IMG/VR virus record: IMGVR_UViG_2579779009_000001
Coordinates: 1-36,215 of that record
Reading direction: 5' to 3' (one strand)
Source of the DNA: a virus
Lineage: Duplodnaviria; Heunggongvirae; Uroviricota; Caudoviricetes
DNA: 36,215 bases
The first letter of the stretch is position 1, and every line of letters starts with the position of its first letter. The notes beneath the pieces are model-generated. The model did not search any database. It was not told where the DNA came from and worked only from the letters and a program-made list of their open reading frames with translations. Shown in pieces: positions 6,853 to 36,215 of the stretch. Position numbers and translations under genes: made by a program.

Positions 6853-7929
6853 TTACTTTGTAAGTTCTAGAACTCGTTGAGCCAGCCCTTTAAATTGTTC
6901 GTTAAAGGCGTCTCTGCTTGATTTCATTGTATTTAAGGCATGCCCAAATTGCCCTGAATCGCGAATTTGCTGATCACTGATGGAGAAAACAGGTGTCGCT
7001 AGTTGTTGGCTTATTGCGATTAATGAGTTGAAATCGGAAATATGCGCAAGATCATAGGCTGATAAATCTCCACTGACTGTTGTTTTGTTAATTGCATGTT
7101 GCACTTTATCTCGTGGAATTATGCAGGTAATTTTTTCTAGATTTGGCACTAAGATCGAATCAACAGCATCACGGATAGCTGCCATCCATTTTTCGAAAGA
7201 TTTTACAGGTGCTCCTTTACGCGGCCTGTATCTCTGCTGAATCATACCTAGAAACTGCGGTGCATTTTTAATTGATTGTGAAGAGTTACCATCATTATTT
7301 TCTTTAAATAATGCTAATTCTTTGTGCCAGCGAGGTATATTTTTTGAGAGAGAGCGAATTGCTTGCCAGCAAAAAAAGTCTGGAGCTACAGGTACGATAA
7401 AATAGTCACTTGACATGAGAACTACTTCATTTAAACCTCCAACATTAGGGCTGAGATCATAAAGAATGTAATCAATATTATTCTTCAAGGCGATTAGCTG
7501 TAATATTTTTGGCAGGTTCCCTGGTATATTTCTTGTAGCAGGAATACCAGCAGCAATTTTTAGAGAAACACTTATCTGTGAATCTAAGTCCGAAACATCT
7601 AAATGTCCGGGAAGAAGCAGAAGGTTTTCATGCAGTGTAGGGTGTAATTTTCCCGTTTCTTTTTCAAGGTATGCTTCAGGTTGTCCGCCATTAATCAAAT
7701 ATTCTACAATAGGTCCAAGAGTTAAGTTATCTCTGCTAGAATAAAAAGAATCTAAACCCTCATCAATCTTTTCATAGCCAAGAACCATTCCTGTTAGATT
7801 ACATTGCGAATCAAGGTCAACCATCAATACTTTCTTGCCTTCATCCGCAAGTGCCCATCCAAGATTGAAGGTTGTTGTGGTTTTACTTACCCCACCTTTA
7901 TGATTAAAAAAACAAATTGATTTTGTCAT
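6853..7929 (-). CDS. ParA/MinD-family P-loop ATPase (358 aa) with extended C-terminal region; lone gene between OL and cI
   Basis: Deviant Walker A at residues 10-17 (NHKGGVSKTTTTFNLGWALADEGKKVLMVDLDSQ), Walker B-like YILYDLSP; AAGGA RBS; AT-rich by eye; same strand as and downstream of cI. No adjacent ParB-like gene. Confidence 0.8.
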   Translation of the reverse strand: MTKSICFFNHKGGVSKTTTTFNLGWALADEGKKVLMVDLDSQCNLTGMVLGYEKIDEGLDSFYSSRDNLTLGPIVEYLINGGQPEAYLEKETGKLHPTLHENLLLLPGHLDVSDLDSQISVSLKIAAGIPATRNIPGNLPKILQLIALKNNIDYILYDLSPNVGGLNEVVLMSSDYFIVPVAPDFFCWQAIRSLSKNIPRWHKELALFKENNDGNSSQSIKNAPQFLGMIQQRYRPRKGAPVKSFEKWMAAIRDAVDSILVPNLEKITCIIPRDKVQHAINKTTVSGDLSAYDLAHISDFNSLIAISQQLATPVFSISDQQIRDSGQFGHALNTMKSSRDAFNEQFKGLAQRVLELTK

Positions 7930-8099: not shown

Positions 8100-8804
8100 C
8101 TAAAGCCGGTTGTATTTAATTGATTCGTGTATCAATGCTTTGCCCATAACATAAAGTTGATCTTGGGACTTCTCATCAATGTACCATTTCTCATAGGCTG
8201 GATTATCCGAAAGAACGGCGAGTTTGTTGCCTTGCATTTGTAGACGTTTAACGTGGAACGTCTTACCATAAACGAAAGAGTAAACACCATCAGTTTGGAA
8301 GTTGCGAACAGAAATGTCGACAAACAGTCGATCTCCGGAAACTAGAGTAGGGGACATGCTGTCGCCATTTACAGTCATAACTTTAATATCATCTTGAGAA
8401 CGATTACCGAAAAGAGAACGGGCATGCTCTGTTGTGAACTCAATGGCGTAGAGCACATCAACATAGTCTGAAAGCATATAGGTCCCAGGTCCTGCGCTAA
8501 CGCTAAGATCCAAAACTTCTATCCTGTATACATCGGGTTTTGTTGGATTGGGGATGCTTGCCATTTCCTTACATCCTTCTCTCTCGCCAACACCATATTC
8601 TAAATATGAAGCTGATACCCCCAGAGCCAATGCAAGTTTATTCATGACAGAGGCACGAGGCTTCGCAGCGCCGATTGTGTATCGCCGCGCCATTTCATAT
8701 GTAACGCCCACAAGACTTTTGAGTTGGGTGACAGAAATTCCCTTGTTTGTCATTAGCTCGTTTAGTCTCTTGGCGAAATCTGGATACTTCTGTTCTTCTA
8801 CCAT
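8100..8804 (-). CDS. cI: CI-type prophage repressor (N-terminal HTH + C-terminal S24 LexA-like autopeptidase); start uncertain (8804, 8840 or 8861)
   Basis: HTH region (KRLNELMTNKGISVTQLKSLVGVTYEMARRY), S24-like C-terminus (MTVNGDSMSPTLVSGDRLFVD...KR); divergent from a cro-like gene; the 5' 57 nt of the track ORF contain operator repeats, so the 8804 start (MVEEQ...) is preferred. Confidence 0.85.
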   Translation of the reverse strand: MVEEQKYPDFAKRLNELMTNKGISVTQLKSLVGVTYEMARRYTIGAAKPRASVMNKLALALGVSASYLEYGVGEREGCKEMASIPNPTKPDVYRIEVLDLSVSAGPGTYMLSDYVDVLYAIEFTTEHARSLFGNRSQDDIKVMTVNGDSMSPTLVSGDRLFVDISVRNFQTDGVYSFVYGKTFHVKRLQMQGNKLAVLSDNPAYEKWYIDEKSQDQLYVMGKALIHESIKYNRL

Positions 8805-8842
8805 AGGTAGAAGATTACTCGCATCACATACGCTAGTCATTT

Positions 8843-8878
8843 CTATTTTAAGTAGTTGCATTTTGCTATTTTAAGTAG
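8843..8878. promoter_or_regulatory. OR-like operator repeats (two copies of CTATTTTAAGTAG) in the cI-cro divergent promoter region
   Basis: Direct read: tCTATTTTAAGTAGttgcattttgCTATTTTAAGTAGca; same half-site as the OL palindrome at 6616-6634. Confidence 0.6.
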
Positions 8879-14719: not shown

Positions 14720-14736
14720 TTTTGTGGAGAAGGTTG

Positions 14737-15078
14737 ATGCGTGATATGTATGAAGTTTTGGACCGCTGGGGAGCATGGGCGGCAGCAGATAACAGTGGTG
14801 TGGACTGGCAACCGATAGCTGCAGGCTTCAAGGGGCTTTTACCTCATGGCAAAAAGTCTCGCCTCCAGTGTGATGATGATGAAGGGATCATGATAGACGG
14901 TTGTGTCGCACGGTTACGTAAATATAAACAAGAAGAATATGAGTTAGTTATTGCCCACTTTGTTATTGGTATTTCATTACGCACCATTGCGAAGAAGCGT
15001 AAGTGTTCTGATGGGACAATTAGAAAAGATATGCAAACAGCATTAGGTTTTGTTAGTGGTGTGCTATCAATGCTATGA
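14737..15078 (+). CDS. Putative late-gene antiterminator (Q-like, 113 aa)
   Basis: GGAGAAGG RBS before the ATG at 14737; last gene before the lysis region; C-terminal HTH-like segment. Call is by position and size, not strong homology. Confidence 0.5.
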   Translation: MRDMYEVLDRWGAWAAADNSGVDWQPIAAGFKGLLPHGKKSRLQCDDDEGIMIDGCVARLRKYKQEEYELVIAHFVIGISLRTIAKKRKCSDGTIRKDMQTALGFVSGVLSML

Positions 15079-15104: not shown

Positions 15105-15845
15105 CTAAATTACTTGGATGATGAAAGAAACAATCAATGCTGCTAAACCACCAACGGCAGATACTTTGAATTCCGAACCACGAAATGCCATCTTCCCATT
15201 GACCTTTATATTATTTGCAATGAATGGCGAGATTCCAACGGCCGCACTCATGAAATATAAAGAGAAAATCATTTTCTTTTGAAATTCATTCAAATCTGGT
15301 ATTAGCAGCGTAATTGATAAAAAAATACAAAAACATAAAAATCCAATAATGGCAGTGACAATTAATTTCCAATTCATTGGTGTGCCTATAGTAAATCCAT
15401 CGATTGGCAAATTTCGAGACTCAAATTCAGCAATAATAGGTGTGTAAATATCTTTTGATGAATACTTTTTAATGATTCTTTGGAGGTTTGATAGACCATC
15501 TTTGCTATACAGTACAATATTGTTTGGATCAATTTCTAGGCATTTAATGTTTGACACCATCATGTCGTAGTATTCTAAATAAGTTTCCAGAACCGCTCGA
15601 CAGTCTCCAACTAAGGAAATGGCAAATGTCTTATTGTCATCCAGTTTACATAAATCTACTTTTTGAACTAATTTAACAGCGGTATTAAAATATTTTGAAG
15701 CATGCTGCTGAATTTCATGTAGGTCAGCAAGGTTTGATATACCATTACACAAGTATGGCTGAATACCACGTAAAAATCTTTCCTTTGCAGAAATCAGCTC
15801 CGACGTTACTTCGTCGGGGCTGATCTGAAACACATCATTATTCAT
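15105..15845 (-). CDS. Membrane protein of unknown function: ~155-aa N-terminal soluble domain plus three C-terminal TM helices (246 aa)
   Basis: Hydrophobic segments WKLIVTAIIGFLCFCIFLSITLLI, MIFSLYFMSAAVGISPFIA, VSAVGGLAALIVSFIIQVI; start overlaps the upstream gene stop (ATGA); AT-rich; opposite strand to flanking late genes. Confidence 0.7.
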   Translation of the reverse strand: MNNDVFQISPDEVTSELISAKERFLRGIQPYLCNGISNLADLHEIQQHASKYFNTAVKLVQKVDLCKLDDNKTFAISLVGDCRAVLETYLEYYDMMVSNIKCLEIDPNNIVLYSKDGLSNLQRIIKKYSSKDIYTPIIAEFESRNLPIDGFTIGTPMNWKLIVTAIIGFLCFCIFLSITLLIPDLNEFQKKMIFSLYFMSAAVGISPFIANNIKVNGKMAFRGSEFKVSAVGGLAALIVSFIIQVI

Positions 15846-16105
15846 TTTTGTTTTGGCGCCAGCATTCTTAATGCAGTGTTAAGATCAGAGTTGTCCACAC
15901 TGTCGGTGATTAAGAAATGGGTATTGGGAACATGACGGCTGATAATGCCTTGGAGCATGCTACGACTTATAACTTTACCACTTTGAATCGCGGAGTTAAT
16001 GTCATTTTGTATCAAAGTGATTTCACGCTCGGCACAGGGGAAACCCCACCGAGTAACACATGCATATTGACCAATTTTTCTCTTAACTTCCAAGTAGTTA
16101 CTCAT
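15842..16105 (-). CDS. Small soluble protein of unknown function (87 aa), first gene of the two-gene moron operon
   Basis: AAGGAG RBS 7 nt before ATG at 16105 (MSNYLEVKRKIGQYACVTRWGFPCAERE...); stop overlaps the start of the membrane-protein gene. Confidence 0.65.
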   Translation of the reverse strand: MSNYLEVKRKIGQYACVTRWGFPCAEREITLIQNDINSAIQSGKVISRSMLQGIISRHVPNTHFLITDSVDNSDLNTALRMLAPKQK

Positions 16106-16225
16106 TGCTGTTCTCCTTGTTTGTAACCACGCCGATAGTATCAAAAAGTAAAGTAATAAAAAACTAACGCGTACGCAAAAAAAATTGTATCGTGTTAAGA
16201 GTGGTTACTTCGCCACACAGCTTAA

Positions 16226-24296: not shown

Positions 24297-24620
24297 ATGC
24301 TGTTAAAAATGGAAGAGATTAAGCTTCAGCTCCGTCTGGATGATGATTTCTCTGATGAAGATGAGTTGCTTGAACTGCTTGGTAAGGCCGCTCAGAGTCG
24401 TACGGAAAACTTCCTTAACCGTAAGTTGTATGCAACCGCAGATGACAGGCCTGCGGATGATCCTGATGGGCTTGTGATATCTGATGATGTGAAGCTGGCG
24501 CTTCTGCTACTTGTCAGCCATTTCTACGAAAACCGCTCAACGGTTACAGACGTTGAGAAAATGGAGTTGCCAATGAGTTTTAACTGGTTGGTTGCTCCTT
24601 ATCGCCTTATACCACTATGA
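24297..24620 (+). CDS. Head-tail connector (gp6-like)
   Basis: AGGAGG RBS before ATG at 24297 (MLLKMEEIKLQL...); position after capsid gene. Confidence 0.65.
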   Translation: MLLKMEEIKLQLRLDDDFSDEDELLELLGKAAQSRTENFLNRKLYATADDRPADDPDGLVISDDVKLALLLLVSHFYENRSTVTDVEKMELPMSFNWLVAPYRLIPL

Positions 24621-25027
24621 AAATTCGTCAGGCGCAGACCAGCGCAACCTACATACTGCCGGACCCCGGCGAACTGAATAAACGCGTCCTGATCCGCCAG
24701 CGGGTGGATATGCCCGCGGATAACTTTGGCGTGGAGCCTCAATACCCGGTTGCGTTCCGGGCATGGGCGAAGGTTATCCAGACCAGTGCCACCACCTGGC
24801 AGGAAACCGCGCAGACCGGAGATGCCATCACCCATTACATCACCATTCGCTACCGCCGCGGGATCACTGCTGATTATGAGGTGGTCTGTGATGACAGTGT
24901 GTACCGGGTGAAACGTCAGCGCGATCTGAACGGGGCGCGGCGCTTTCTGCTGCTGGAGTGTACGGAACTGGGCGAATTTACGCAGAGTCACGGAGGCAGC
25001 AATGGCGACTCCCTTTTTTCACGTTGA
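24617..25027 (+). CDS. Head closure / head-tail joining protein
   Basis: Overlapping start/stop with neighbours in the head-tail joining block. Confidence 0.6.
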   Translation: MKIRQAQTSATYILPDPGELNKRVLIRQRVDMPADNFGVEPQYPVAFRAWAKVIQTSATTWQETAQTGDAITHYITIRYRRGITADYEVVCDDSVYRVKRQRDLNGARRFLLLECTELGEFTQSHGGSNGDSLFSR

Positions 25028-25508
25028 TGTTCAGCAGCCCGCGGAGATGCGCTTTAACCGCGCCCGTGTCCGGCGGGCGTTTGTCACGATTGGGCAGCGT
25101 CATATGCGTGATGCCCGTCGGCTGGTGATGCGCCGTGCGCGGTCGGCACCGGGTGAAAACCCCGGTTATCAGACCGGACGCCTGGCTCGTTCGATTGGTT
25201 ACATGGTGCCGAGAGCCAGTAAAAAGCGAGCCGGTTTTATGACACGCATTGCCCCTAACCAGCGCAACGGGAAGGGGAACCGGATGATCTCTGGTGACTT
25301 CTATCCGGCGTTTCTGTTTTTTGGTGTCCGGGGAGGAGCAAAACGTCGTCGTAGTCATCATCGTGGTGCATCCGGTGGCAGCGGCTGGCGGCTGGCTCCA
25401 CGTAATAACTTTATGGTGGAAACTCTTGAAAAGAACCGCAGCTGGACACGCTATTTTCTGGCGCGGGAATTACGTAAATCACTGAAGCCGGAGCGACGAC
25501 GCAGATGA
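25002..25508 (+). CDS. Tail-neck protein (HK97 gp10-like), basic
   Basis: Arg-rich protein in conserved order. Confidence 0.55.
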   Translation: MATPFFHVDVQQPAEMRFNRARVRRAFVTIGQRHMRDARRLVMRRARSAPGENPGYQTGRLARSIGYMVPRASKKRAGFMTRIAPNQRNGKGNRMISGDFYPAFLFFGVRGGAKRRRSHHRGASGGSGWRLAPRNNFMVETLEKNRSWTRYFLARELRKSLKPERRRR

Positions 25509-26065
25509 AACTGACGCCTGTTATTGCTGCGCTGCGTGCCCGCTGCCCGTATTTTGAAAACCGGGTGGCAGGCGCGGCACAGTTCAAAAATCTGCCGGAG
25601 GTCGGAAAGCTGAGACTCCCGGCGGCATATGTTGTACCGGGTGATGATTCTCCGGGAGAAAACAAAAGCCAGACCGACTACTGGCAGGAGCTGAAAGAGG
25701 GCTTCTCCGTGGTTGTCATACTGAGTAACGGGCGTGATGAGCGCGGTCAGTTTGCCTCGTATGATGTGGTGGACGATGTCCGGCAAATGCTCTTTAAGGC
25801 CCTGCTGGGCTGGAACCCGGAAGCGTGCGGTAACCCGATTACCTATGACGGCGGCACGCTGCTGGATCTGAATCGTCATGAGCTGATTTATCAGTTCGAT
25901 TTTTCGGTCATCAGCGAGCTGACCGAAGACGATACCCGCCAGCAGGATGACCTGAACAGTCTGGATGAACTGCGAACGCTGGCGATTGATGTTGATTATC
26001 TCGATCCCGGTAACGGGCCTGACGGCGATATCGAACATCACACCGAAATAACCCTTCCTTCCTGA
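25505..26065 (+). CDS. Tail completion/terminator-type protein
   Basis: Coupled start; precedes sheath gene. Confidence 0.55.
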   Translation: MKLTPVIAALRARCPYFENRVAGAAQFKNLPEVGKLRLPAAYVVPGDDSPGENKSQTDYWQELKEGFSVVVILSNGRDERGQFASYDVVDDVRQMLFKALLGWNPEACGNPITYDGGTLLDLNRHELIYQFDFSVISELTEDDTRQQDDLNSLDELRTLAIDVDYLDPGNGPDGDIEHHTEITLPS

Positions 26066-26073
26066 GAATCTTC

Positions 26074-26244
26074 ATGTTTGTGAAACCTGTTAAAGGGCGG
26101 TCAGTTCCTGACCCTGCCCGCGGCGACCTTTTGCCCGCCGAAGGGCGAAATGTTGACGAGAACAACTACTGGCTGCGCCGTGAAGCAGCGGGTGATATCC
26201 GGCGCGTGAATAAAAAGGTGAATACCGATGACGATAAGCTTTAA
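26074..26244 (+). CDS. Small conserved-position ORF (56 aa) upstream of the tail sheath
   Basis: ATG at 26074; 3' end overlaps the sheath start in another frame; weak RBS. Confidence 0.3.
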   Translation: MFVKPVKGRSVPDPARGDLLPAEGRNVDENNYWLRREAAGDIRRVNKKVNTDDDKL

Positions 26245-27724
26245 CACCATTCCGTCGAATACGCTGGTTCCGTTGTTTTATGCGGAAATGGATAACTCGG
26301 CGGCGAATACTGCACAGGACAGCGGAGCATCGCTGCTGATTGGTCATGCCAATAACGGTGCAGAGATTGTTGCCAACAGTCTGGTACTGATGCCGTCGGC
26401 AGACTATGCACGCCAGATTTGTGGTGCGGGAAGTCAGCTGGCGCGTATGGTCGAGGCTTATCGCCAGACCGACCCGTTTGGTGAGCTGTATGTGATTGCC
26501 GTTCCTGAATCCACAGGCGCGGCGGCAACGGTTACGCTGACGGTGACCGGGGCGGCAACCGAAACCGGCACGGTGAATGTCTATGTGGGACGTACCCGCG
26601 TGCAGGCTCCGGTGACCAACGGCGATAACGTCACGACGATTGCCAGCAGTATCAAAGATGCCATCAATGCCGTTCCGGCCCTGCCGTTTACGGCTTCATC
26701 TTCGGCAGGCGTGGTCACACTGACCGCGCGTCATAAGGGGCTTTGCGGGAATGAAATTCCTGTCAGCCTCAATTACTACGGCTTTGGTGGGGGCGAAGTG
26801 CTGCCAGCGGGCGTACAGATTGCCGTGGCGACGGGTACCGCCGGAACGGGTGCTCCGGTTCTCACCGGCGCGGTGGCTGCAATGGCGGATGAGCCGTTTG
26901 ATTATATCGGCCTGCCGTTCAACGACACGGCCTCCGTTAACACGCTGGTGACCGAGATGAACGATACCAGCGGTCGCTGGAGCTATGCGCGTCAGCTGTA
27001 TGGTCATGTGTATACGGCAAAGATCGGCACGCTGTCAGAACTGGTGACCGCAGGTGACCAGTTTAACCAGCAGCACATTACCCTGGCGGGGTACGAAAAA
27101 GAGACCCAGACGCCTGCCGACGAACTGGCGGCAAGCCGTACCGCCCGCGCTGCGGTGTTTATTCGCAACGATCCGGCACGTCCCACGCAGACCGGTGAGC
27201 TGGTGGGTATGCTGCCTGCGCCGAAGGGGAAACGGTTCACGATGACCGAACAACAGACCCTGCTGTCTCATGGCGTGGCAACGGCGTATGTCGAAAGCGG
27301 GGTACTGCGCATTCAGCGTGATGTCACCACGTACAGGAAAAACGCTTACGGGGTTGCGGATAACAGCTACCTAGACAGTGAGACTCTGCATACCAGCGCG
27401 TATGTACTGCGCAAACTGAAATCCGTCATTACCAGTAAGTACGGGCGTCACAAGCTTGCCAGTGACGGTACCCGCTTTGGTCCCGGTCAGGCGATTGTCA
27501 CCCCGGCGGTGATCAAAGGGGAACTGCTGGCAACCTACCGTCAGCTTGAGCGTGCGGGGATCGTGGAAAACTACGCACTGTTTAAGCAGTACCTAGTTGT
27601 GGAGCGTGATGCCAGCGATCCGAACCGCCTGAACACGCTGTTCCCGCCTGACTATGTTAACCAGTTGCGTGTCTTTGCCGTGGTTAACCAGTTCCGTCTT
27701 CAGTATTCAGAGGAGTCCGCATAA
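26228..27724 (+). CDS. Contractile tail sheath protein (Mu gpL-like)
   Basis: 498-aa protein (MTISFNTIPSNTLVPLFYAEMDNS...) followed by tube and chaperone genes. Confidence 0.85.
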   Translation: MTISFNTIPSNTLVPLFYAEMDNSAANTAQDSGASLLIGHANNGAEIVANSLVLMPSADYARQICGAGSQLARMVEAYRQTDPFGELYVIAVPESTGAAATVTLTVTGAATETGTVNVYVGRTRVQAPVTNGDNVTTIASSIKDAINAVPALPFTASSSAGVVTLTARHKGLCGNEIPVSLNYYGFGGGEVLPAGVQIAVATGTAGTGAPVLTGAVAAMADEPFDYIGLPFNDTASVNTLVTEMNDTSGRWSYARQLYGHVYTAKIGTLSELVTAGDQFNQQHITLAGYEKETQTPADELAASRTARAAVFIRNDPARPTQTGELVGMLPAPKGKRFTMTEQQTLLSHGVATAYVESGVLRIQRDVTTYRKNAYGVADNSYLDSETLHTSAYVLRKLKSVITSKYGRHKLASDGTRFGPGQAIVTPAVIKGELLATYRQLERAGIVENYALFKQYLVVERDASDPNRLNTLFPPDYVNQLRVFAVVNQFRLQYSEESA

Positions 27725-28080
27725 TGGCCCGTATCGGGGGAACCTGTTATTTCAAAATTGACGGTCAGCAGCTATCGCTGACCGGCGGCATTGAGGTGCC
27801 CATGAACAGGACGGTCAATGATGACATCATCGGCCTGGACGGTTCAGTGGACCGCAAGGAAACTCACCGTGCGCCTTATGTCAAAGGGACCTTCAAGGTG
27901 CCGAAGAATTTTCCGGTGAGCAAAATCACCTCGTCTGATGAGATGACCATCACTGCCGAGCTGGCGAACGGTCAGGTCTATGTACTGTCGTCTGCCTGGC
28001 TGCACGGCGAAGCGAACCATAATGCCGAAGAAGGCACGGTCGATCTTGAGTTCCACGGTGAAGAAGGGGATTACCAGTAA
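27724..28080 (+). CDS. Tail tube protein (Mu gpM-like)
   Basis: 118 aa, immediately after sheath. Confidence 0.8.
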   Translation: MARIGGTCYFKIDGQQLSLTGGIEVPMNRTVNDDIIGLDGSVDRKETHRAPYVKGTFKVPKNFPVSKITSSDEMTITAELANGQVYVLSSAWLHGEANHNAEEGTVDLEFHGEEGDYQ

Positions 28081-28349
28081 TGAAAGAGCTTGAGTTAAAG
28101 AAACCGATTACCGCTCATGGCGAGACACTCTCCGTACTGGAGTTTGATGAGCCCACCGGGAAAGATGTCCGCGAGCTGGGGTATCCCTACCAGATGAATC
28201 AGGATGAGTCCGTCAGACTTCTGGCGCATGTGGTGTCGAAATACATTGTGCGGCTGGCGAAAGTGCCGCAAAGCTCTGTCGACCAGATGTCTCCGGCAGA
28301 CCTGAATGCAGCGGCGTGGCTTGTGGCTGGTTTTTTCCTCCAGGCCTGA
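28080..28349 (+). CDS. Tail assembly chaperone (0-frame product)
   Basis: Between tube and tape-measure genes; overlaps a -1-frame ORF at a slippery site. Confidence 0.7.
   Translation: MKELELKKPITAHGETLSVLEFDEPTGKDVRELGYPYQMNQDESVRLLAHVVSKYIVRLAKVPQSSVDQMSPADLNAAAWLVAGFFLQA
28331..28337 (+). other. Candidate -1 programmed ribosomal frameshift site (T TTT TTC) joining 28080..28349 to the -1-frame ORF ending at 28498
   Basis: Heptamer in X XXY YYZ register in the chaperone 0 frame; the -1 frame stays open 160 nt to 28498 and overlaps the tape-measure start. Confidence 0.6.
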
Positions 28350-28490
28350 CGGCTGAATACCTCACTGATCGCTTCTTTGACTGCGCCAGCTACTGGCGCA
28401 TTAATCCCTTCGAATTGCTGAATATGCCGATCAGTGAAATTCCCTTGCTGGTCAGTCAGGCAAACAGGATAGAGCAGGAGAAACGCACAC

Positions 28491-30323
28491 ATGGCTGAAT
28501 TTGAGCTTAAGGCGTTGATCACCGGTGTCGACAGGCTTTCTCCCGCGCTGTCGAAAATGCAAAAGAAAATCCGGGGATTTAAACGCCAGGCGGAAGAAGC
28601 GTCACAGGGTGGGCTGGCGCTTGGTGGAGGACTGGCAGCGGGGCTGACGCTTTCCCTGAAATCTTATGCCGATCAGGAAAACGCCGCTACCGGGCTGAAA
28701 GTCGCCATGATGGATGCGAACGGCGAGGTTGGAAAGAGCTTTCAGGACATCAATAAACTGGCTATTGGCCTGGGTAACCAGCTACCCGGTACAACGGCTG
28801 ATTTCCAGAACATGATGCAGATGCTGGTGCGTCAGGGGATCCCGGCAGAAAACATTCTGGGTGGTGTGGGTAAAGCGACAGCTTATCTTGCGGTACAACT
28901 GAAAAAAACACCGGAAGCGGCTGCTGAGTTTGCTGCAAAGATGCAGGATGCTACCGGAACGGCGTCAGAAGACATGATGGGGCTGTTCGACACTATCCAG
29001 AAGGCGTTTTATCTGGGCGTTGACGATACCAACATGTTGTCCTTCTTCACTAAAACCAGTTCTGTTCTGAAGATGGTGAACAAGGACGGTCTTCAGGCTG
29101 CACAGAGCCTTGCCCCCATCAGCGTCATGATGGATCAGATGGGGATGAACGGGGAGTCGGCAGGTAATGCCCTGCGAAAAGTTATCCAGTCCGGATTAAG
29201 TGTTAAGAAAATCAGGGACGTCAATAAAGTCATGGCCCGCCAGAAACTCGGGGTACAGCTCGATTTTACTGACGGCAAAGGAAGTTTTGGCGGTCTTGAT
29301 AACATGTTCAGGCAACTGGCAAAGTTGCGAAAACTGACCGACGTTAAGCGAACAGGCGTACTTAAGGCAATATTTGGTGATGATGCCGAAACCCTTCAGG
29401 TGGTCAATGCCCTGATCGATAAAGGAAAGGATGGCTACGATCAGATCCAGCAGAAGATGAATAAACAGGCCAGCCTGAATAAACGTGTTCAGGCTCAGCT
29501 TGGTACGCTGTCCAACCTGTGGGAGGCAATGACGGGGACCGCAACTAACGGTCTTGCAGCTATTGGCGGCGCATTTTCTGGTGACGCTAAAAATATCACG
29601 CAATGGCTGGGGGAGTTGGGGGAAAAATTCACGAAGTTTGCGGATGAAAATCCCCGGGTTATTCGCGGCGTCGTCGGGCTTGCTGCCGGTCTTGCGATTC
29701 TGAAACTGGGATTGATGGGCGTTGGCGGTGCCATCAGTATTGTCAGCAGGATCATGTCGATGACGCCGATTGGCATGATTGCGACGGCGATAGCCCTGGC
29801 TGCGGGATTAATTATCACTAACTGGGATGTTGTCGGACCTTATTTTAAGAAACTCTGGGAAACCATTGGTCCTTATTTTGAGGCTGGCTGGGAACTCCTT
29901 AAGAAAGTTTTTGCCTGGTCGCCGCTGGGGATGGTGATCAATAACTGGGGGCCGGTTGTTAAGTGGTTTCAGGATATGTGGGACAAGCTGAAGCCAATTA
30001 TTGAGTGGTTTACCGACAGTTCCGGTGACACGGTCGATGCCATTAACTCTGCGCAGTGGGGCGCGGGTGCTTATGATGCTTATGGGACGGGAATACCGAC
30101 GCGGGGATACACACCTTATCCGGCGGTAGATCCGGCTCAGTCAAACAACGCCTCCGATGCCACAGGCCCGAATCCCTTCATGATTAACAAAGCTATCGCG
30201 CCAAAAGTTGATGGCGAGATCAAGGTTTCATTTATGAATATGCCACCAGGTCTGCGGGTTACGGAAACACGTTCCAGTGGCATTGATATTAATCACGATG
30301 TTGGGTACACCAGATTTAGGTAA
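28491..30323 (+). CDS. Tail tape measure protein
   Basis: 610-aa protein with hydrophobic central segments and Gly/Ala-rich helical repeats. Confidence 0.85.
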   Translation: MAEFELKALITGVDRLSPALSKMQKKIRGFKRQAEEASQGGLALGGGLAAGLTLSLKSYADQENAATGLKVAMMDANGEVGKSFQDINKLAIGLGNQLPGTTADFQNMMQMLVRQGIPAENILGGVGKATAYLAVQLKKTPEAAAEFAAKMQDATGTASEDMMGLFDTIQKAFYLGVDDTNMLSFFTKTSSVLKMVNKDGLQAAQSLAPISVMMDQMGMNGESAGNALRKVIQSGLSVKKIRDVNKVMARQKLGVQLDFTDGKGSFGGLDNMFRQLAKLRKLTDVKRTGVLKAIFGDDAETLQVVNALIDKGKDGYDQIQQKMNKQASLNKRVQAQLGTLSNLWEAMTGTATNGLAAIGGAFSGDAKNITQWLGELGEKFTKFADENPRVIRGVVGLAAGLAILKLGLMGVGGAISIVSRIMSMTPIGMIATAIALAAGLIITNWDVVGPYFKKLWETIGPYFEAGWELLKKVFAWSPLGMVINNWGPVVKWFQDMWDKLKPIIEWFTDSSGDTVDAINSAQWGAGAYDAYGTGIPTRGYTPYPAVDPAQSNNASDATGPNPFMINKAIAPKVDGEIKVSFMNMPPGLRVTETRSSGIDINHDVGYTRFR

Positions 30324-30354
30324 AGACGAACAGGGAGGGTCGCCCCCCCTGAAC

Positions 30355-30801
30355 TTACTGTGCGAACACGCAATTTCGGCCTGATGGGGAGCCGACAATT
30401 CTGGACATTTTTTCGCAAATAACAGTTACTTGTTCTCCTTTTTTAAGAGCAGCAGCTGTTGATTTTTCAGAGTCTTGCATCTCCATTCTTGCTGGCATGA
30501 ATTCATTTTCAGTTCTGAATTTAATAATTATAGAGTCAGTAAAGTCCTTATCAATGGATTGTACGATACCTCTAACGGCGATTAATTTACCTTTTAACTG
30601 TTCATCGGTAGCGACTTCATTTTCTTCATACTCTTTAAACAGCTGTCGAGCAGTAGTGTTGTAGATTTCTTTTTGCGGTGCCGCAGCTTCCGTATCGGAT
30701 GAGTATGAAGAATTAGAGCCTTTATCGTTATTGCCTGCAAAATATCCAATAATCACCAACCCGATGAAAATATATAAAATCCATTTTAATAATTTCTTCA
30801 T
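30355..30801 (-). CDS. Membrane-anchored protein with possible OB-fold-like soluble domain (148 aa); opposite-strand moron within the tail operon
   Basis: N-terminal anchor (MKKLLKWILYIFIGLVIIGYFAG, no lipobox Cys); AT-rich; AAGGTGA RBS and AT-rich upstream region with TATAAA-like element; OB-fold assignment is tentative. Confidence 0.7.
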   Translation of the reverse strand: MKKLLKWILYIFIGLVIIGYFAGNNDKGSNSSYSSDTEAAAPQKEIYNTTARQLFKEYEENEVATDEQLKGKLIAVRGIVQSIDKDFTDSIIIKFRTENEFMPARMEMQDSEKSTAAALKKGEQVTVICEKMSRIVGSPSGRNCVFAQ

Positions 30802-30911
30802 GTTATCACCTTAATGCTAATAATTTATATAGTTACAAATGGTAATGGCTACCACTACAAATTATGGCATTACCAGTAAATATTACTACTGATAATAAAT
30901 ATGGGACTTAT

Positions 30912-32240
30912 ATGACGTGGAAAGACAGGCTTCAGGATGCGTCATTTCGCAGCGTGCCGTTTAAGGTTGAAGAAGAAAGTGCGGGAACCGGTCGCCGTGT
31001 GGAAACACATGAATACCCGAACCGCGACAAGCCCTATACCGAAGATCTGGGAAAAGTCACTTTCCGCCCGTCCATCACAGCTTATGTGGTGGGAGATGAC
31101 TGCTTTGACCAGCGCGATCGCCTGATTGAAGCGCTGAATAAACCCGGTCCCGGCACGCTTGTCCACCCGACATATGGTGAGCTGAAAGTCTGTGTTGACG
31201 GGGAAGTTCGGGTCAGCACATCGAAAAGTGAAGGGCGTATTGTCCGCTTTGACCTGAAGTTTGTCGAAGCAGGAGAACTCTCTTACCCCACATCAGGTGC
31301 GGCGACGGCGCAGACGCTGATGTCATCCTGTTCTGCACTGGATGACTGCATCAGTGACAGCTTCAGCGGTTTCAGTATCGATGGTGTGGCGGATTTCGTG
31401 CAGAACGACGTTATCGGTAATGCCAGCATAATGCTGGGGTATGTTTCTGATGCGATGAAAGTGGTGGATTCTGCCGTATCGGATGCCGCCAGGCTGTTGC
31501 AGGGGGATATCTCGGTACTTCTGCCGCCGCCATCGTCAGGCAAAAATTTCGTTGAGCAGGTGCAGAAAATGTGGCGTACCGGGAAACGCCTTTATGGTAA
31601 CGCCAGCGACCTGGTCACCATGATCAAAACGCTTTCCGGTGTCAGCCTCGGCAGCGATCTGCAACCGCGCGGCGTCTGGAAAACGGACAGTAAAACCACC
31701 GCCACGGCGACGCAGCAGCGTAACGTGGTTGCCAGCACCCTTCGTACGACCGCAATCAGCGAAGCGGCGTATGCCGTCACCCGATTGCCTGCGCCAATAA
31801 CTTCCGCGGTGATGCAGAATTCCGCAGTGGGGCAGGCAACAACACCCGCGCAGAGCACTGGCTGGCCTTCCGTCACGCATCCGGCACTGAACAATGCACC
31901 GGCGGTGAAAAACACGGTTGACCTGCCGACGTGGGAAGAACTGACTGACATTCGCGACACACTGAATACGGCAATTGATAAGGAGTTGTCCCGTACAACC
32001 AGTGATGCGCTGTTTCTGGCGCTGCGCCGGGTGAAAGCAGATCTGAATGCGGATATCAACACGCGCCTTGAACAGTCTGCACGGATCATTCAGCGCACAC
32101 CGGATGAGGTTTTACCCGCGCTGGTGCTGGCGGCGACCTGGTTTGATAACGCGGCGCGTGACGCGGACATTATCCGGCGTAATGCCATTACGCATCCCGG
32201 CTTTGTGCCGGTGATCCCTCTGAAGGTGCCAGTGCAATGA
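30912..32240 (+). CDS. DNA circularization protein (Mu gpN-like); alternative start 30864
   Basis: N-terminus MTWKDRLQDASFRSVPFKVEEES fits the Mu N-like family; position after tape measure. Confidence 0.75.
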   Translation: MTWKDRLQDASFRSVPFKVEEESAGTGRRVETHEYPNRDKPYTEDLGKVTFRPSITAYVVGDDCFDQRDRLIEALNKPGPGTLVHPTYGELKVCVDGEVRVSTSKSEGRIVRFDLKFVEAGELSYPTSGAATAQTLMSSCSALDDCISDSFSGFSIDGVADFVQNDVIGNASIMLGYVSDAMKVVDSAVSDAARLLQGDISVLLPPPSSGKNFVEQVQKMWRTGKRLYGNASDLVTMIKTLSGVSLGSDLQPRGVWKTDSKTTATATQQRNVVASTLRTTAISEAAYAVTRLPAPITSAVMQNSAVGQATTPAQSTGWPSVTHPALNNAPAVKNTVDLPTWEELTDIRDTLNTAIDKELSRTTSDALFLALRRVKADLNADINTRLEQSARIIQRTPDEVLPALVLAATWFDNAARDADIIRRNAITHPGFVPVIPLKVPVQ

Positions 32241-33316
32241 ACGACAATGTCACGCTACGGGTAAATGGCCGGGAGTGGAATGGCTGGACATCGGTGCGCA
32301 TCGGTGCCGGTATTGAACGGCTGGCGCGGGATTTCAGTGTGGAGATCACTCGCCAGTGGCCGGGAGATGAGGGTATCACCACGCTTCAGCCGCGCATTAA
32401 AAACGGTTCAAAAGTGGAAGTGCTGATTGGTGATGAGCTGGTGATTACCGGCTGGGTGGAGGCGACTCCCGTTCGTTACGATGCCCGTTCGGTCAGCACC
32501 GGTATTGCCGGACGTAGTCTGACGGCTGACCTGATTGACTGTGCAGCCGAACCGACACAGTTTAACGGACGCTCGCTGGTGCAGATTGCGCAGGCGCTTG
32601 CTGCGCCTTTCGGCATTGAGGTGGTGAACAGCGGTGCGCCATCGGGTGTTATTCCTGATGTTCAGCCTGATCACGGTGAAACGGTGATTGAGGTAATCAA
32701 CAAAATACTCGGTCAGCAGCAGGCGCTGGCTTACGACGACCCGCACGGCAGGCTGGTGATTGGCGGTATTGGCTCAACGCGGGCACATACCGCGCTGGTA
32801 CTTGGGGAAAACATCCTTTCCTGTGATACGGAGAAGAGTATCCGGGAGCGGTTTTCTGTTTACCAGGTGGCGGGGCAGCGTGCCGGAAACGACGATGATT
32901 TCGGTGAGGCCACCACCACCGCGCTGCGGGCCCGCACAGAGGACGCATTTATTGCCCGTTACCGTCCGATGTATATCAGGCAGACAGGGCAGGCTACGGG
33001 GGCAGGCTGTATTGCGCGTGCTGACTTTGAAGCCCGGCAACGGGCGGCGCGGACGGATGAAACCACCTATGTGGTGCAGGGCTGGCGACAGGGTAACGGT
33101 ACGCTGTGGCAGCCCAACCAGCGGGTGATTGTCTTCGATCCGGTCTGTGGTTTCGACAATACCGAACTGCTTGTCTCGGAAGTCACGTTTACTCAGGACC
33201 AGAACGGCACCCTGACGGAAATCCGTGTCGGCCCGCCTGATGCTTATCTGCCTGAACCCGAAGATCCCGGCGCGCGGAAAAAGAAAAAAGCCAGAGTACA
33301 GGAGGACCCGTTCTGA
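32237..33316 (+). CDS. Baseplate hub / tail protein (Mu gpP-like, P2 gpD-like)
   Basis: 359-aa protein; coupled to neighbours in Mu-like order. Confidence 0.75.
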   Translation: MNDNVTLRVNGREWNGWTSVRIGAGIERLARDFSVEITRQWPGDEGITTLQPRIKNGSKVEVLIGDELVITGWVEATPVRYDARSVSTGIAGRSLTADLIDCAAEPTQFNGRSLVQIAQALAAPFGIEVVNSGAPSGVIPDVQPDHGETVIEVINKILGQQQALAYDDPHGRLVIGGIGSTRAHTALVLGENILSCDTEKSIRERFSVYQVAGQRAGNDDDFGEATTTALRARTEDAFIARYRPMYIRQTGQATGAGCIARADFEARQRAARTDETTYVVQGWRQGNGTLWQPNQRVIVFDPVCGFDNTELLVSEVTFTQDQNGTLTEIRVGPPDAYLPEPEDPGARKKKKARVQEDPF

Positions 33317-33864
33317 TGAGGACGATTGAAGCCATGCAGCGACAACTTCTCGGCCTGATTGGGCGGGCAGTGGTGAAAAGCATCAGTGCCGCCACGAAAT
33401 GTCAGACCGTGGATGTGTCCCTGATTGCCGGTGAACCCAAAGCCGGGGTTGAACATCTTGAACCCTACGGTTTTACCGCAAGGGCAAACAGCGGTGCGGA
33501 AGCGGTGGTGTTGTTTCCGGATGGCGACCGTTCTCATGCGGTGGTTGTTACGGTGTCGGACCGGCGCTACCGCCTGAAAGGGCTGCAGACGGGTGAGGTG
33601 GCTGTCTATGACGATCAGGGGCAGTCTGTGACGCTGACCCGGGAGGGGATCGTGGTGGACGGTGCAGGTAAAACGATCACGTTTCGCAATGCGCCCAGAG
33701 CACGTTTTGAAATGGACCTTGAAGTGACCGGACAGGTGAAAGACCTGTGCGACTCCGGCGGCACTACCATGTCAGCGATGCGGCTTGCCTATAACGGGCA
33801 TCGTCACAGAGAGAACGGTCAGGGCAGTAACACCGACAAACCTGATAAAGCGATGGAGGCATGA
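33316..33864 (+). CDS. Baseplate assembly protein V (spike)
   Basis: 182 aa; gpV-like order and size. Confidence 0.7.
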   Translation: MRTIEAMQRQLLGLIGRAVVKSISAATKCQTVDVSLIAGEPKAGVEHLEPYGFTARANSGAEAVVLFPDGDRSHAVVVTVSDRRYRLKGLQTGEVAVYDDQGQSVTLTREGIVVDGAGKTITFRNAPRARFEMDLEVTGQVKDLCDSGGTTMSAMRLAYNGHRHRENGQGSNTDKPDKAMEA

Positions 33865-34289
33865 TGGAACTGTGGCTGACGGTGAACGGTAAACGCACCT
33901 GCGCCAGCGCACCGCTGGATCCGCTGACCCGCGCCGTGGTGATTTCCCTGTTTACCTGGCGGCGGGCGGAGCCTGATGACAACGCCGACGTCCCGATGGG
34001 ATGGTGGGGGGATACCTGGCCTGCGGTACAGAATGACCGTTACGGCTCCCGACTGTGGCTGCTTCAGCGCAGCAAACTGACCAATCAGCTGGTGCAGACG
34101 GTAAGGGGGTATATCCGCGAATGCCTGCAATGGATGATTGATGACGGCGTGGTGTCCCGTATTGATCTGGATATCCGCCGCACCGGGATTAATGAGCTGG
34201 GTAACAGTATCACCCTCTGGCGTCGTGACGGACCGGTAATGATTTCTTTTGATGATCTGTGGAGTGCGATAACGCATGGCGGACAGTGA
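33861..34289 (+). CDS. Baseplate protein (GP46 family)
   Basis: 142 aa; position between gpV-like and Baseplate_J-like genes. Confidence 0.7.
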   Translation: MMELWLTVNGKRTCASAPLDPLTRAVVISLFTWRRAEPDDNADVPMGWWGDTWPAVQNDRYGSRLWLLQRSKLTNQLVQTVRGYIRECLQWMIDDGVVSRIDLDIRRTGINELGNSITLWRRDGPVMISFDDLWSAITHGGQ

Positions 34290-35334
34290 ATTTCAGCGCC
34301 CGACGCTGGCAGAAAATATCAGTATGCTCCGTAACGATTTATTCGCCAGGCTGGACGTCAGCGACACGCTCCGGCGCATGGATGAAGACGTGCGGGCAAA
34401 GGTGTATGCGGCGGCGCTGCATACGGTTTACGGTTACATCGATTATCTGGCAATGAACATGCTGCCTGACCTGTGCGATGAGTCCTGGCTGGCGCGACAT
34501 GCTGCGATGAAACGGTGTCCGCGCAAGGGGGCCACGGCTGCCAGCGGGTATATGCGCTGGGAAGGTGTCAGCGATGGCCTGAAGGTGACCGCCGGGAGCG
34601 TGATTCAGCGCGCTGACCTGGTTCAATACACGGCAACTGCTGATGCAACCAGCTCCGGTGGTGTCCTGCGCGTGCCGATCACTTGCTCAAGTGCAGGCGC
34701 GGTCGGTAACGCTGACGACGGTACGGCATTAATCCTGGTCACGCCGGTGAATGGTCTGCCGTCTTCCGGTGTTGCAGATACCCTGACTGGCGGATTCGAT
34801 ACTGAAGATCTGGAAACGTGGCGCGCCCGCGTCATTGAGCGGTATTACTGGACGCCTCAGGGCGGGGCTGACGGGGACTATGTCGTCTGGGCTAAAGAAG
34901 TGCCCGGCATTACCCGCGCATGGACATACCGTCACTGGATGGGAACGGGAACTGTCGGTGTGATGATTGCCAGCAGTGACCTGATTAATCCCATTCCGGA
35001 AGAATCAACGGAAACGGCGGCAAGACAACATATCGGGCCACTGGCCCCGGTGGCAGGCTCTGATTTGTATGTCTTCAGGCCGGTGGCGCATAAAGTGGAT
35101 TTTCATATCCGCGTGACGCCGGACACACCGGAAATACGGGCTGCCATCACCGCCGAGTTGCGTTCGTTCCTGCTGCGTGATGGTTATCCGCAGGGAGAAC
35201 TGAAGGTGTCGCGTATCAGTGAGGCGATTTCCGGTGCGAACGGGGAATACAGCCATCAGTTGTTTGCACCGGCAGACAATATCTCCATTGCAAAAAATGA
35301 ACTGGCGGTACTGGGGACGATTTCATGGACGTGA
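34276..35334 (+). CDS. Baseplate J-like protein (Mu gp47-like)
   Basis: 352 aa; conserved order. Confidence 0.8.
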
Positions 35335-35909
35335 CAAACGATGATTACATCCGTCTGTTGTCGGCACTGTTGCCCCCCGGTCCGGCGTGGTCAGCCAGCG
35401 ATCCGGCGATTGCCGGTGCGGCACCGTCATTAACCCGCGTTCATCAGCGTGCGGATGCCCTGATGCGGGAGCTGGATCCGCGCACCACCACCGAACTGAT
35501 AAATCGCTGGGAGCGTCTGTGCGGCCTGCCGGATGAATGTATTCCCGCAGGGACACAGACCCTTCGCCAGCGTCAGCAACGACTGGATGCGAAGGTTAAC
35601 CTGGCGGGCGGCATCAATGAGGATTTTTACCTTGCACAGCTTGCTGCCCTGGGCAGACCAGACGCCACCATCACGCGATACGACAAAAGCACGTTCACCT
35701 GCTCATCGGCCTGTACTGACGCGGTGAATGCGCCGGAATGGCGGTATTACTGGCAGGTCAACATGCCAGCCGCCACCAACACCACCTGGATGACATGTGG
35801 CGATCCCTGTGATTCCGCACTGCGTATCTGGGGCGACACCGTTGTCGAGTGTGTGCTTAACAAACTCTGCCCGTCGCATACCTACGTAATTTTTAAATAT
35901 CCGGAGTAA
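35325..35909 (+). CDS. Tail protein, DUF2313/YmfQ-like (Mu gp48-like)
   Basis: 194 aa; follows Baseplate_J as in Mu-like tails. Confidence 0.7.
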
Positions 35910-35912
35910 TCC

Positions 35913-36215
35913 ATGCATCGTATAGACACGAAAACCGCGCAGAAGGATAAGTTCGGCGCGGGTAAGAACGGTTTTACCCGTGGTAATCCCCAGACTGGTA
36001 CGCCTGCCACCGATCTGGATGATGACTACTTTGACATGTTGCAGGAGGAGCTTTGCAGCGTTGTGGAGGCATCCGGTGCCAGCCTGGAGAAGGGGCGGCA
36101 TGACCAGTTGCTTACCGCACTTCGCGCACTGCTGTTAAGCCGCAATAATCCGTTTGGTGATATCAAATCGGACGGCACGGTACCAACGGCTCTCGAAAAC
36201 CTTGGTTTGGGAGAA
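35913..36215 (+). CDS. Tail fibre protein, N-terminal part (truncated by window end)
   Basis: ORF from ATG 35913 ([43 protein letters not shown]...) runs open to the window end; position after baseplate genes. Confidence 0.65.

Follow-up and report, generated by a model that had tools for sequence, protein, structure and literature searches.

The 36,215-nucleotide sequence IMGVR_UViG_2579779009_000001 from IMG/VR (referred to in its full length as the window) is an Escherichia coli prophage whose tail operon is interrupted by one gene on the opposite strand. This minus-strand open reading frame (ORF), 30355-30801, begins at an ATG and encodes a 148-amino acid (aa) protein labeled "OB-fold protein" in RefSeq (WP_000734912.1). 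The gene is a moron, a piece of optional cargo set between the tail tape-measure gene and a Mu-N-like gene, and its product is a homolog of Sie2009, the superinfection exclusion protein of Lactococcus phage Tuc2009. Its probable function is Sie2009-like exclusion at the DNA-entry step, performed by an OB domain that is tethered to the inner membrane and faces the periplasm; because the support comes from remote homology and from the genomic neighborhoods of relatives, this reading is proposed with moderate confidence.

An optional cargo gene at the tape-measure/N junction

The initial annotation of the window described a lone AT-rich gene on the minus strand of a co-directional, GC-richer tail operon, and the ORF, its composition, and its flanks agree with that description. 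The GC content is 0.37 over the ORF as a whole against a window mean of 0.507 and 0.51-0.58 for the tape-measure and Mu-N-like genes on its two sides, and in a sliding window it is 0.33-0.41 over the ORF versus 0.50-0.62 in the flanking tail genes. The cassette thus has the composition of a moron, with a GC content below that of the surrounding phage genes. All flanking tail genes are on the plus strand. Rightward of the cassette is a Mu-type baseplate set, in which DNA_circ_N is followed by a GpP-like gene; the Mu Gp45/46/48 families match the corresponding genes of two related prophages that share this gene order. The cassette has sharp edges, as similarity to relatives with an empty slot ends at the tape-measure stop codon and restarts at the N start codon.

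A 1.6-kb junction probe was searched against 5426 complete Escherichia coli genomes, and slot states were read from an even sample down the probe ranking and from representative loci. The probe matched 1093 of the genomes, with full coverage in only 74. The cassette alone is found in 79 of the 5426 genomes (72 at an identity of at least 99%), and all told 79 of the 1093 junction-bearing genomes hold it. The commonest state in the sample is an empty slot, a 60-bp spacer with a hairpin and a T-run. The two tail genes are adjacent in phages SfV, SfI, SfII, and vB_EcoM-689R6, and an E. coli prophage (L002) has its tape-measure and N genes next to each other with the same 60-bp spacer. Other prophages carry different cargo. 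In 179 genomes and in phage SKA5, the slot is taken by a plus-strand protein of 176 aa that has a hydrophobic segment at its N-terminus (phrog_5485), and in 28 genomes by a plus-strand bPH_1-domain protein, such that approximately one quarter of the 1093 junction-bearing genomes hold one of the three counted cargo genes. A more divergent prophage has a minus-strand 145-aa protein with two transmembrane segments. Neither the 176-aa nor the 145-aa protein resembles the OB family, and the only matches of the bPH protein are to bacterial PH-domain families.

The cassette is also lost or broken in some genomes. E. coli 042 and some other genomes have lost 142 bp of it, and with them the candidate promoter, ribosome-binding site, start codon, and anchor; one E. 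coli copy is interrupted by IS1. Because the tail genes are adjacent in relatives, unrelated genes serve as alternative cargo, and copies are deleted or cut by IS1, the ORF is firmly identified as a moron. The earlier proposal of a cargo insert in a structural operon therefore holds: SfV, SfI, SfII, and many prophages of E. coli have no cargo in the slot, and the conservation across related tail operons that had been named as contrary evidence was not found. The tape-measure/N junction of SfV-like prophages is a cargo hotspot, and a literature search returned no study of this junction as such.

The E. coli 042 deletion (NC_017626.1 907783-908169) lies between short TTA repeats. Its remnant is still annotated in RefSeq as an "OB-fold protein" coding sequence (CDS) with a non-ATG first codon and is probably a pseudogene. 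Empty and plus-strand-cargo alleles keep a GC-rich hairpin and T-run just upstream of gene N (2028-2087 in L002, about 2660-2700 in L003, and about 2470-2515 in L004, the latter two being further junction loci). This hairpin is annotated as "terminator" in phage SfII, and the window allele is without it. An intrinsic terminator in the middle of the late operon implies dependence on Q antitermination, and the hairpin may mark the recombination point of the slot.

The start of the Mu-N-like gene is most likely 30912 (ATGACGTGGAAAGAC), based on the annotation of relatives including those with an empty slot. The ATG at 30864, where the mechanically called ORF begins, falls within the cassette and is the less likely start. 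Relatives begin N at the counterpart of the 30912 ATG, so that the 16 codons at the front of the long N-gene ORF (30864-30911) are probably untranslated.

Protein architecture and predicted topology

The 148-aa protein has PF12869 (tRNA_anti-like OB-fold) as its sole Pfam match, at 69.5 bits against a gathering cutoff of 23.5, with residues 2-130 aligned to model positions 5-131 of 146. An AlphaFold2 (AF2) model built with 41 homologs has a mean predicted local distance difference test score (pLDDT) of 86. It starts with a helix (residues 2-21), followed by a disordered linker (24-39) and a domain (46-146) with pLDDT 95-98 that contains the strands and capping helix of an OB-fold. Residues 3-23 are the only hydrophobic segment (Kyte-Doolittle peak of 2.16 in a 19-aa window), and there is no Cys before residue 129 and hence no lipobox. 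These features agree with the N-terminal anchor without a lipobox cysteine that was first read from the sequence, and the membrane association of Sie2009-type proteins is predicted for this protein by both hydropathy and the AF2 helix.

The OB domain carries the motifs YxxNEVAxD, QSIDKDF, and GxPxG and a cysteine pair, C129/C144, that is invariant in the Gram-negative family. In many relatives, a cytoplasmic N-terminal zinc ribbon is followed by a transmembrane helix and the OB domain, and other relatives swap the helix for a lipobox or a cleavable signal peptide. Because three lysines precede the helix, the cysteine pair is invariant, and the relatives have these zinc-ribbon, lipobox, and signal-peptide forms, the anchor is predicted to be N-in with the OB domain outside the cytoplasm. 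The domain is acidic, with an isoelectric point (pI) of 5.6, which argues against the nucleic-acid binding implied by the PF12869 family name.

The best match of the model among solved structures is 3F1Z (E 5e-5, TM-score 0.5-0.6), followed by the anticodon-binding OB domains of tRNA synthetases. Matches among viral structures are named tRNA_anti-like, with one "host cell surface-exposed lipoprotein". A PDB sequence search with the 148-aa protein gave chance hits only, and an NCBIfam search gave no match. Some relatives, including P0091, P0094, and P0110, have two to five tandem OB domains behind a signal peptide or behind a zinc ribbon and transmembrane helix; P0110 has 580 aa and five OB repeats.

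Homology to Sie2009

Sie2009 is a membrane-associated blocker of DNA injection, and how Sie2009-type exclusion works is described to date as unknown (PMC7693887, PMC10883804). PHROG 8545, named "superinfection exclusion Sie-like", matches the window protein over its full length (E 1.5e-49), and the Tuc2009 orf2 product, which is Sie2009, carries the same label and matches the same PHROG (E 1.7e-79). Sie2009 also passes the PF12869 threshold (E 3.5e-11). Alignment of Sie2009 with the enterobacterial family profile by hhalign gives 97.6% probability (E 3.6e-12) and spans the anchor, linker, and OB domain, including a Y..N..AxD..KGK motif; pairwise BLASTP gives E 1e-6. By PHROG 8545, the window protein is thus a homolog of Sie2009-type proteins. 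It is likewise encoded by a non-essential gene of a temperate phage, as the window is a thrW prophage and the gene is dispensable in its relatives.

Genomic contexts and spread of relatives

Relatives in the same slot and orientation are found in Buttiauxella (73% identity), in a second E. coli allele (71%), and in Scandinavium. Opposite-strand copies also lie inside the different tail operons of viral contig L065 and Klebsiella phage ST405-OXA48phi1.2. Viral contigs contain 70 loci, and 22 dereplicated loci outside the E. coli type were examined. A recognizable repressor gene is directly upstream on the same strand in 8 of these 22, six with Phage_CI_repr and CI_C domains (gaps of 13-30 bp) and two of the S24 LexA-like type. 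One further locus has a shorter homolog of S24-type proteins upstream, two more have an HTH_3 protein directly upstream, and three P2-like loci have an HTH_3 repressor two genes upstream. Relative P0081 directly follows an S24 repressor, and in Burkholderia phage Carl1 and related P2-like contigs the family gene lies between the repressor and tail gene D. In Ralstonia-type contigs, it sits beside genes for an OLD/Gabija-like ATPase and a UvrD helicase; SIR2 and TIR genes are also among the defense-like neighbors of relatives. A Serratia copy lies at a prophage end beside an acyltransferase gene.

Chromosomal-looking copies in Pantoea (L010-L012, L097) and Pectobacterium (L022, L104) are directly preceded by uncalled CI-repressor remnants detected by tblastn; the Pantoea remnant is 61% identical over 199 aa, and those in Pectobacterium are smaller pieces. 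On account of these remnants, a core chromosomal, non-phage origin of the family is rejected. In both genera, the sie-like gene seems to survive after the remainder of the prophage is lost. The N-terminal extension of the 206-aa product in Pectobacterium is probably spurious.

The family is found in Enterobacterales, Xanthomonadales, and Betaproteobacteria, and among isolated phages a tblastn search detected a relative in five records only. In Bordetella phage vB_BaM-IFTN4 (OM293953.1), a plus-strand 263-aa ORF (L007 3833-4624) matches both PF12869 and PHROG 8545, has a cleavable signal peptide, and lies downstream of a repressor on the same strand. The minus-strand hypothetical CDS at that site in GenBank is probably a strand mis-annotation. 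A literature search on PF12869, phrog_8545, and Sie-like proteins turned up no work on any Gram-negative member.

Transcription signals and features of the cassette

The AT-rich upstream region was initially taken as promoter-like, and what it contains is a conserved candidate extended -10 element rather than a canonical -35/-10 pair. The element, TGCCATAAT, is kept as TGCnATAAw in the Buttiauxella allele and the 71%-identical E. coli allele as neighboring bases diverge, and this pattern has seven occurrences on both strands of the whole 36-kb window. Its conservation is suggestive of a promoter. The ribosome-binding site AAGGTGA is also kept in the E. coli variant allele.

A hairpin lies within the 31-nt spacer that separates two convergent stop codons. 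The initial annotation had it shared with the 3' end of the tape-measure gene; it lies between the convergent stops and is strand-biased to the minus-strand gene. Its energy is -17.5 kcal/mol (z -2.2) on the minus strand and -13.4 kcal/mol (z -1.15) on the plus strand, since a G-U pair on the minus strand is an A-C mismatch on the other. The minus strand also has a partly T-rich tail, and the plus strand has no T-run. The hairpin variant of E. coli 042 gives a perfect stem. An Rfam scan of 29900-31300 returned only a sub-threshold chance match to MALAT1 (E 0.079). The coordinates of all features are collected in Table 1.

Table 1. Coordinates of the cassette, its components, and the flanking tail genes in the window.
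Feature	Position	Strand	Basis
Tail tape-measure gene, left flank	28491..30323	+	PF10145, tape-measure PHROGs
Moron cassette, ~588 bp, AT-rich	30324..30911	.	Replaces the 60-bp tape-measure/N intergenic region of "empty" relatives
Terminator-like hairpin, 9-bp stem then TTCGTCTTTA	30331..30351	-	Scan hit on minus strand only
Sie2009-like CDS, predicted membrane-anchored OB-fold protein, 148 aa	30355..30801	-	ORF, PF12869, PHROG 8545, AF2, RefSeq
Predicted extracytoplasmic OB-fold domain, codons 44-147	30361..30672	-	pLDDT 95-98, structure match, invariant columns
Predicted N-terminal signal-anchor/transmembrane helix, codons 3-23, preceded by K2, K3, and K6	30733..30795	-	Hydropathy, AF2
Ribosome-binding site AAGGTGA, 4 nt before ATG	30806..30812	-	Read from sequence
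Candidate extended -10 element TGCCATAAT, ~59 nt upstream of ATG	30861..30869	-	Computational
Mu-N-like DNA-circularization/baseplate-hub gene, right flank, revised start	30912..32240	+	PF07157, phrog_184

Proposed mechanism and alternative functions

In the model inferred for lysogen expression, topology, and the exclusion function with its target, transcription of the cassette probably starts at an extended -10 promoter of its own, opposite to the late operon, and the minus-strand transcript would end at the strand-biased hairpin. These signals of its own would permit expression in a repressed lysogen; in the lytic cycle, late transcripts antiterminated by Q would extend across the cassette. 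The protein would insert in the inner membrane with its N-terminus inside, and a flexible linker of ~20 residues would hold a disulfide-stabilized OB-fold in the periplasm. Incoming phages would still adsorb, but their DNA would fail to reach the cytoplasm, as the OB domain may bind an ejection component (the tape measure or tail tip) or an inner-membrane entry partner.

Among the functions listed in the initial annotation (superinfection exclusion, envelope modification, and virulence), superinfection exclusion is favored because the protein is a Sie2009 homolog; the relatives in repressor operons and defense-like hotspots point the same way. Several observations weigh against Sie2009-like exclusion. 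Identity to Sie2009 is low (27% by profile alignment; 36% by pairwise alignment, over 47 aa), and function may not be conserved between Gram-negative and lactococcal envelopes, which differ. Sie2009 targets siphoviruses, whereas the window gene is in a myovirus-tailed prophage. PF12869 is very large, with 7795 clusters at 50% identity (E<=1e-3), and includes KPN03535, a lipoprotein linked by its authors to the Cpx stress pathway. The PADLOC-DB 2.0 defense models gave no match at E<=0.1. A sigma-70 -35/-10 consensus scan upstream of the gene found no canonical promoter, its one match being inside the gene. Truncation affects approximately one in five of the near-identical copies in E. coli, and selection is therefore not strong everywhere.

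The alternative that carries most weight, although unlikely, is a lysogenic-conversion factor that alters host envelope physiology rather than phage entry, for example through stress signaling or through resistance to serum, antimicrobial peptides, or oxidants (compare lambda Bor, NlpE, and the periplasmic BOF proteins). KPN03535 was likened by its authors to NlpE and adjoins a CpxP-like gene, OB-folds also bind oligosaccharides, and copies persist by decayed prophage remnants in Pantoea and Pectobacterium, as expected of a gene useful to the host. However, the sole characterized member of PHROG 8545 is a phage-exclusion protein, the relatives cluster in repressor operons and beside defense-like genes, and the Pfam search gave no Bor or Ail/Lom match. 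The clustering with phage repressors rather than toxin loci also weighs against an immunity protein, anchored in the inner membrane, that would neutralize a toxin acting in the periplasm (for example, a type VI secretion or contact-dependent inhibition effector, a bacteriocin, or a tailocin). Such a role would suit a small membrane-tethered periplasmic domain, anchored as many immunity proteins are, and a large, diverse family with tandem-repeat forms; the Pantoea islet also has a WapI-family immunity gene. With no cognate toxin gene adjacent in any context examined, it is improbable.

Slimmer still is the chance of abortive infection of the AbiP/PdpSau type, in which an anchored, cytoplasmic, nucleic-acid-binding OB-like domain kills the infected cell. 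These proteins are also prophage- or plasmid-encoded, N-terminally anchored, and active in phage defense through an OB-like domain. The OB domain of the window protein, by contrast, is predicted to be extracytoplasmic from its zinc-ribbon, lipobox, and signal-peptide relatives and its cysteine pair; it is acidic (pI 5.6), whereas the PdpSau C-terminus is positively charged, and no sequence link between these proteins and the window protein was found. A conserved structural or assembly part of the Mu-type tail, encoded on the other strand, would explain why the gene lies between tail genes and why family members recur beside tape-measure genes. It is contradicted by the distribution of the gene, which is absent from isolated SfV, SfI, and SfII and from most related prophages and is replaced in the slot by unrelated genes; the membrane anchor and the homologs in repressor operons also speak against a tail part, which leaves this the most improbable of the readings considered.

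Sie2009-like exclusion has a wider form, held only tentatively and with more doubt than belief, in which the extracytoplasmic, membrane- or lipid-tethered PF12869 OB-folds would be one large cross-phylum family of Sie2009-type injection blockers. This family would span Firmicutes, enterobacterial, Burkholderia/Ralstonia, and Xanthomonadales phages and prophages and possibly TcdC of Clostridioides difficile, with >7000 clusters at 50% identity. If so, one fold working in both envelopes must recognize a common ejection feature, for example the tape measure as it emerges or the DNA itself, and the E. coli member would give a mechanism unknown since 2002 its first genetically tractable model. The E. 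coli homolog offers a route to the Sie2009-type mechanism with full phage and host genetics, in a prophage slot that has natural empty, alternative-cargo, and deletion alleles. It also provides a functional lead for thousands of genes labeled only "OB-fold protein" or "putative lipoprotein". A moron that encodes a Sie protein is already known as a type of element, and PHROG-based annotation would label this gene.

Host prophage

The window is an SfV/e14-like lambdoid prophage with HK97-type head genes and a Mu-type tail; the "Mu-like" label of the initial annotation fits the tail genes and not the phage. It is integrated at thrW beside proA, and the window begins in proA. The prophage encodes an integrase, a CI-like S24 repressor (8100-8861), and a Q antiterminator (14722-15078). 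Its tail region (24495-36215) is collinear with that of strain 1916D18 at 98.7% identity, whereas its early, lysis, and head regions resemble the same strain in 91-99% patches only. On this comparison of sequences, the prophage is a mosaic in which the cassette moves with the tail module.

Two further low-GC ORFs, of 246 aa (GC 0.34) and 100 aa (GC 0.42), lie on the minus strand at 15105-16144 between the Q antiterminator gene and the lysis cassette, and a Pfam search of both gave no match. This is a second moron slot. At the same position, an NYN-domain gene is found in strain 1916D18, and a moron has been described in phage SfIV. A ParA/AAA_31-type ATPase gene of low GC content (0.38; 6853-7929, minus strand) immediately follows the CI-like S24 repressor gene on the same strand, a position that Sie2009-family genes take in other prophages. 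This gene, too, may be cargo expressed in the lysogen.

Comparison with known systems

The bor and lom genes of phage lambda are morons within or beside the late genes, with their own transcription signals and expression from the prophage. The comparison with them made in the initial annotation is apt in genetic logic only: Bor belongs to the outer-membrane lipoproteins and Lom to the Ail-type beta-barrels, and the window protein, with PF12869 as its sole Pfam match and no lipobox, is homologous to neither.

HK97 gp15, TP-J34 Ltp, P22 SieA, and T4 Imm and Sp are envelope proteins of phages or prophages that block DNA entry after adsorption. Escape from Ltp and HK97 gp15 maps to the tape measure, and gp15 is also a moron (PMC10883804). 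Sequence and fold searches with the window protein showed no relationship to any of these proteins, which may serve as a working model for the mechanism by functional analogy only.

KPN03535 of Klebsiella pneumoniae (3F1Z) is, like the product proposed here, an exported OB-fold tethered to the membrane. It has a lipid anchor where the window protein has a helix, shares 17-19% identity with it, and is not reported as phage-borne. KPN03535 is also basic (pI 9.4; PMC2954213), compared with a pI of 5.6 for the window domain. TcdC of Clostridioides difficile has a similar order of parts, with an N-terminal anchor followed by a C-terminal OB-fold reported to be surface-exposed, and differs by an extra coiled-coil dimerization region. 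The TcdC profile is reported to match PF12869 by HHpred, and TcdC homologs to lie between cI and int in Lactobacillus phages (PMC3575817; 10.1101/872283). A TcdC query had no match to the narrow family profile, a result not counted against the link to TcdC, which is literature-based only.

The closest comparison is with Sie2009 and the Sie proteins of P335 prophages. They differ from the window protein in several respects: the latter has a Gram-negative host, a predicted periplasmic location, and a conserved cysteine pair that Sie2009 does not have, its gene is in a tail operon and not in the lysogeny module, and its exclusion role is a prediction. Both proteins have an N-terminal hydrophobic anchor, a Ser/Thr-rich linker, and an OB-type domain, and both are products of non-essential genes of temperate phages. 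Many relatives of the window gene sit next to a repressor, as sie2009 does.

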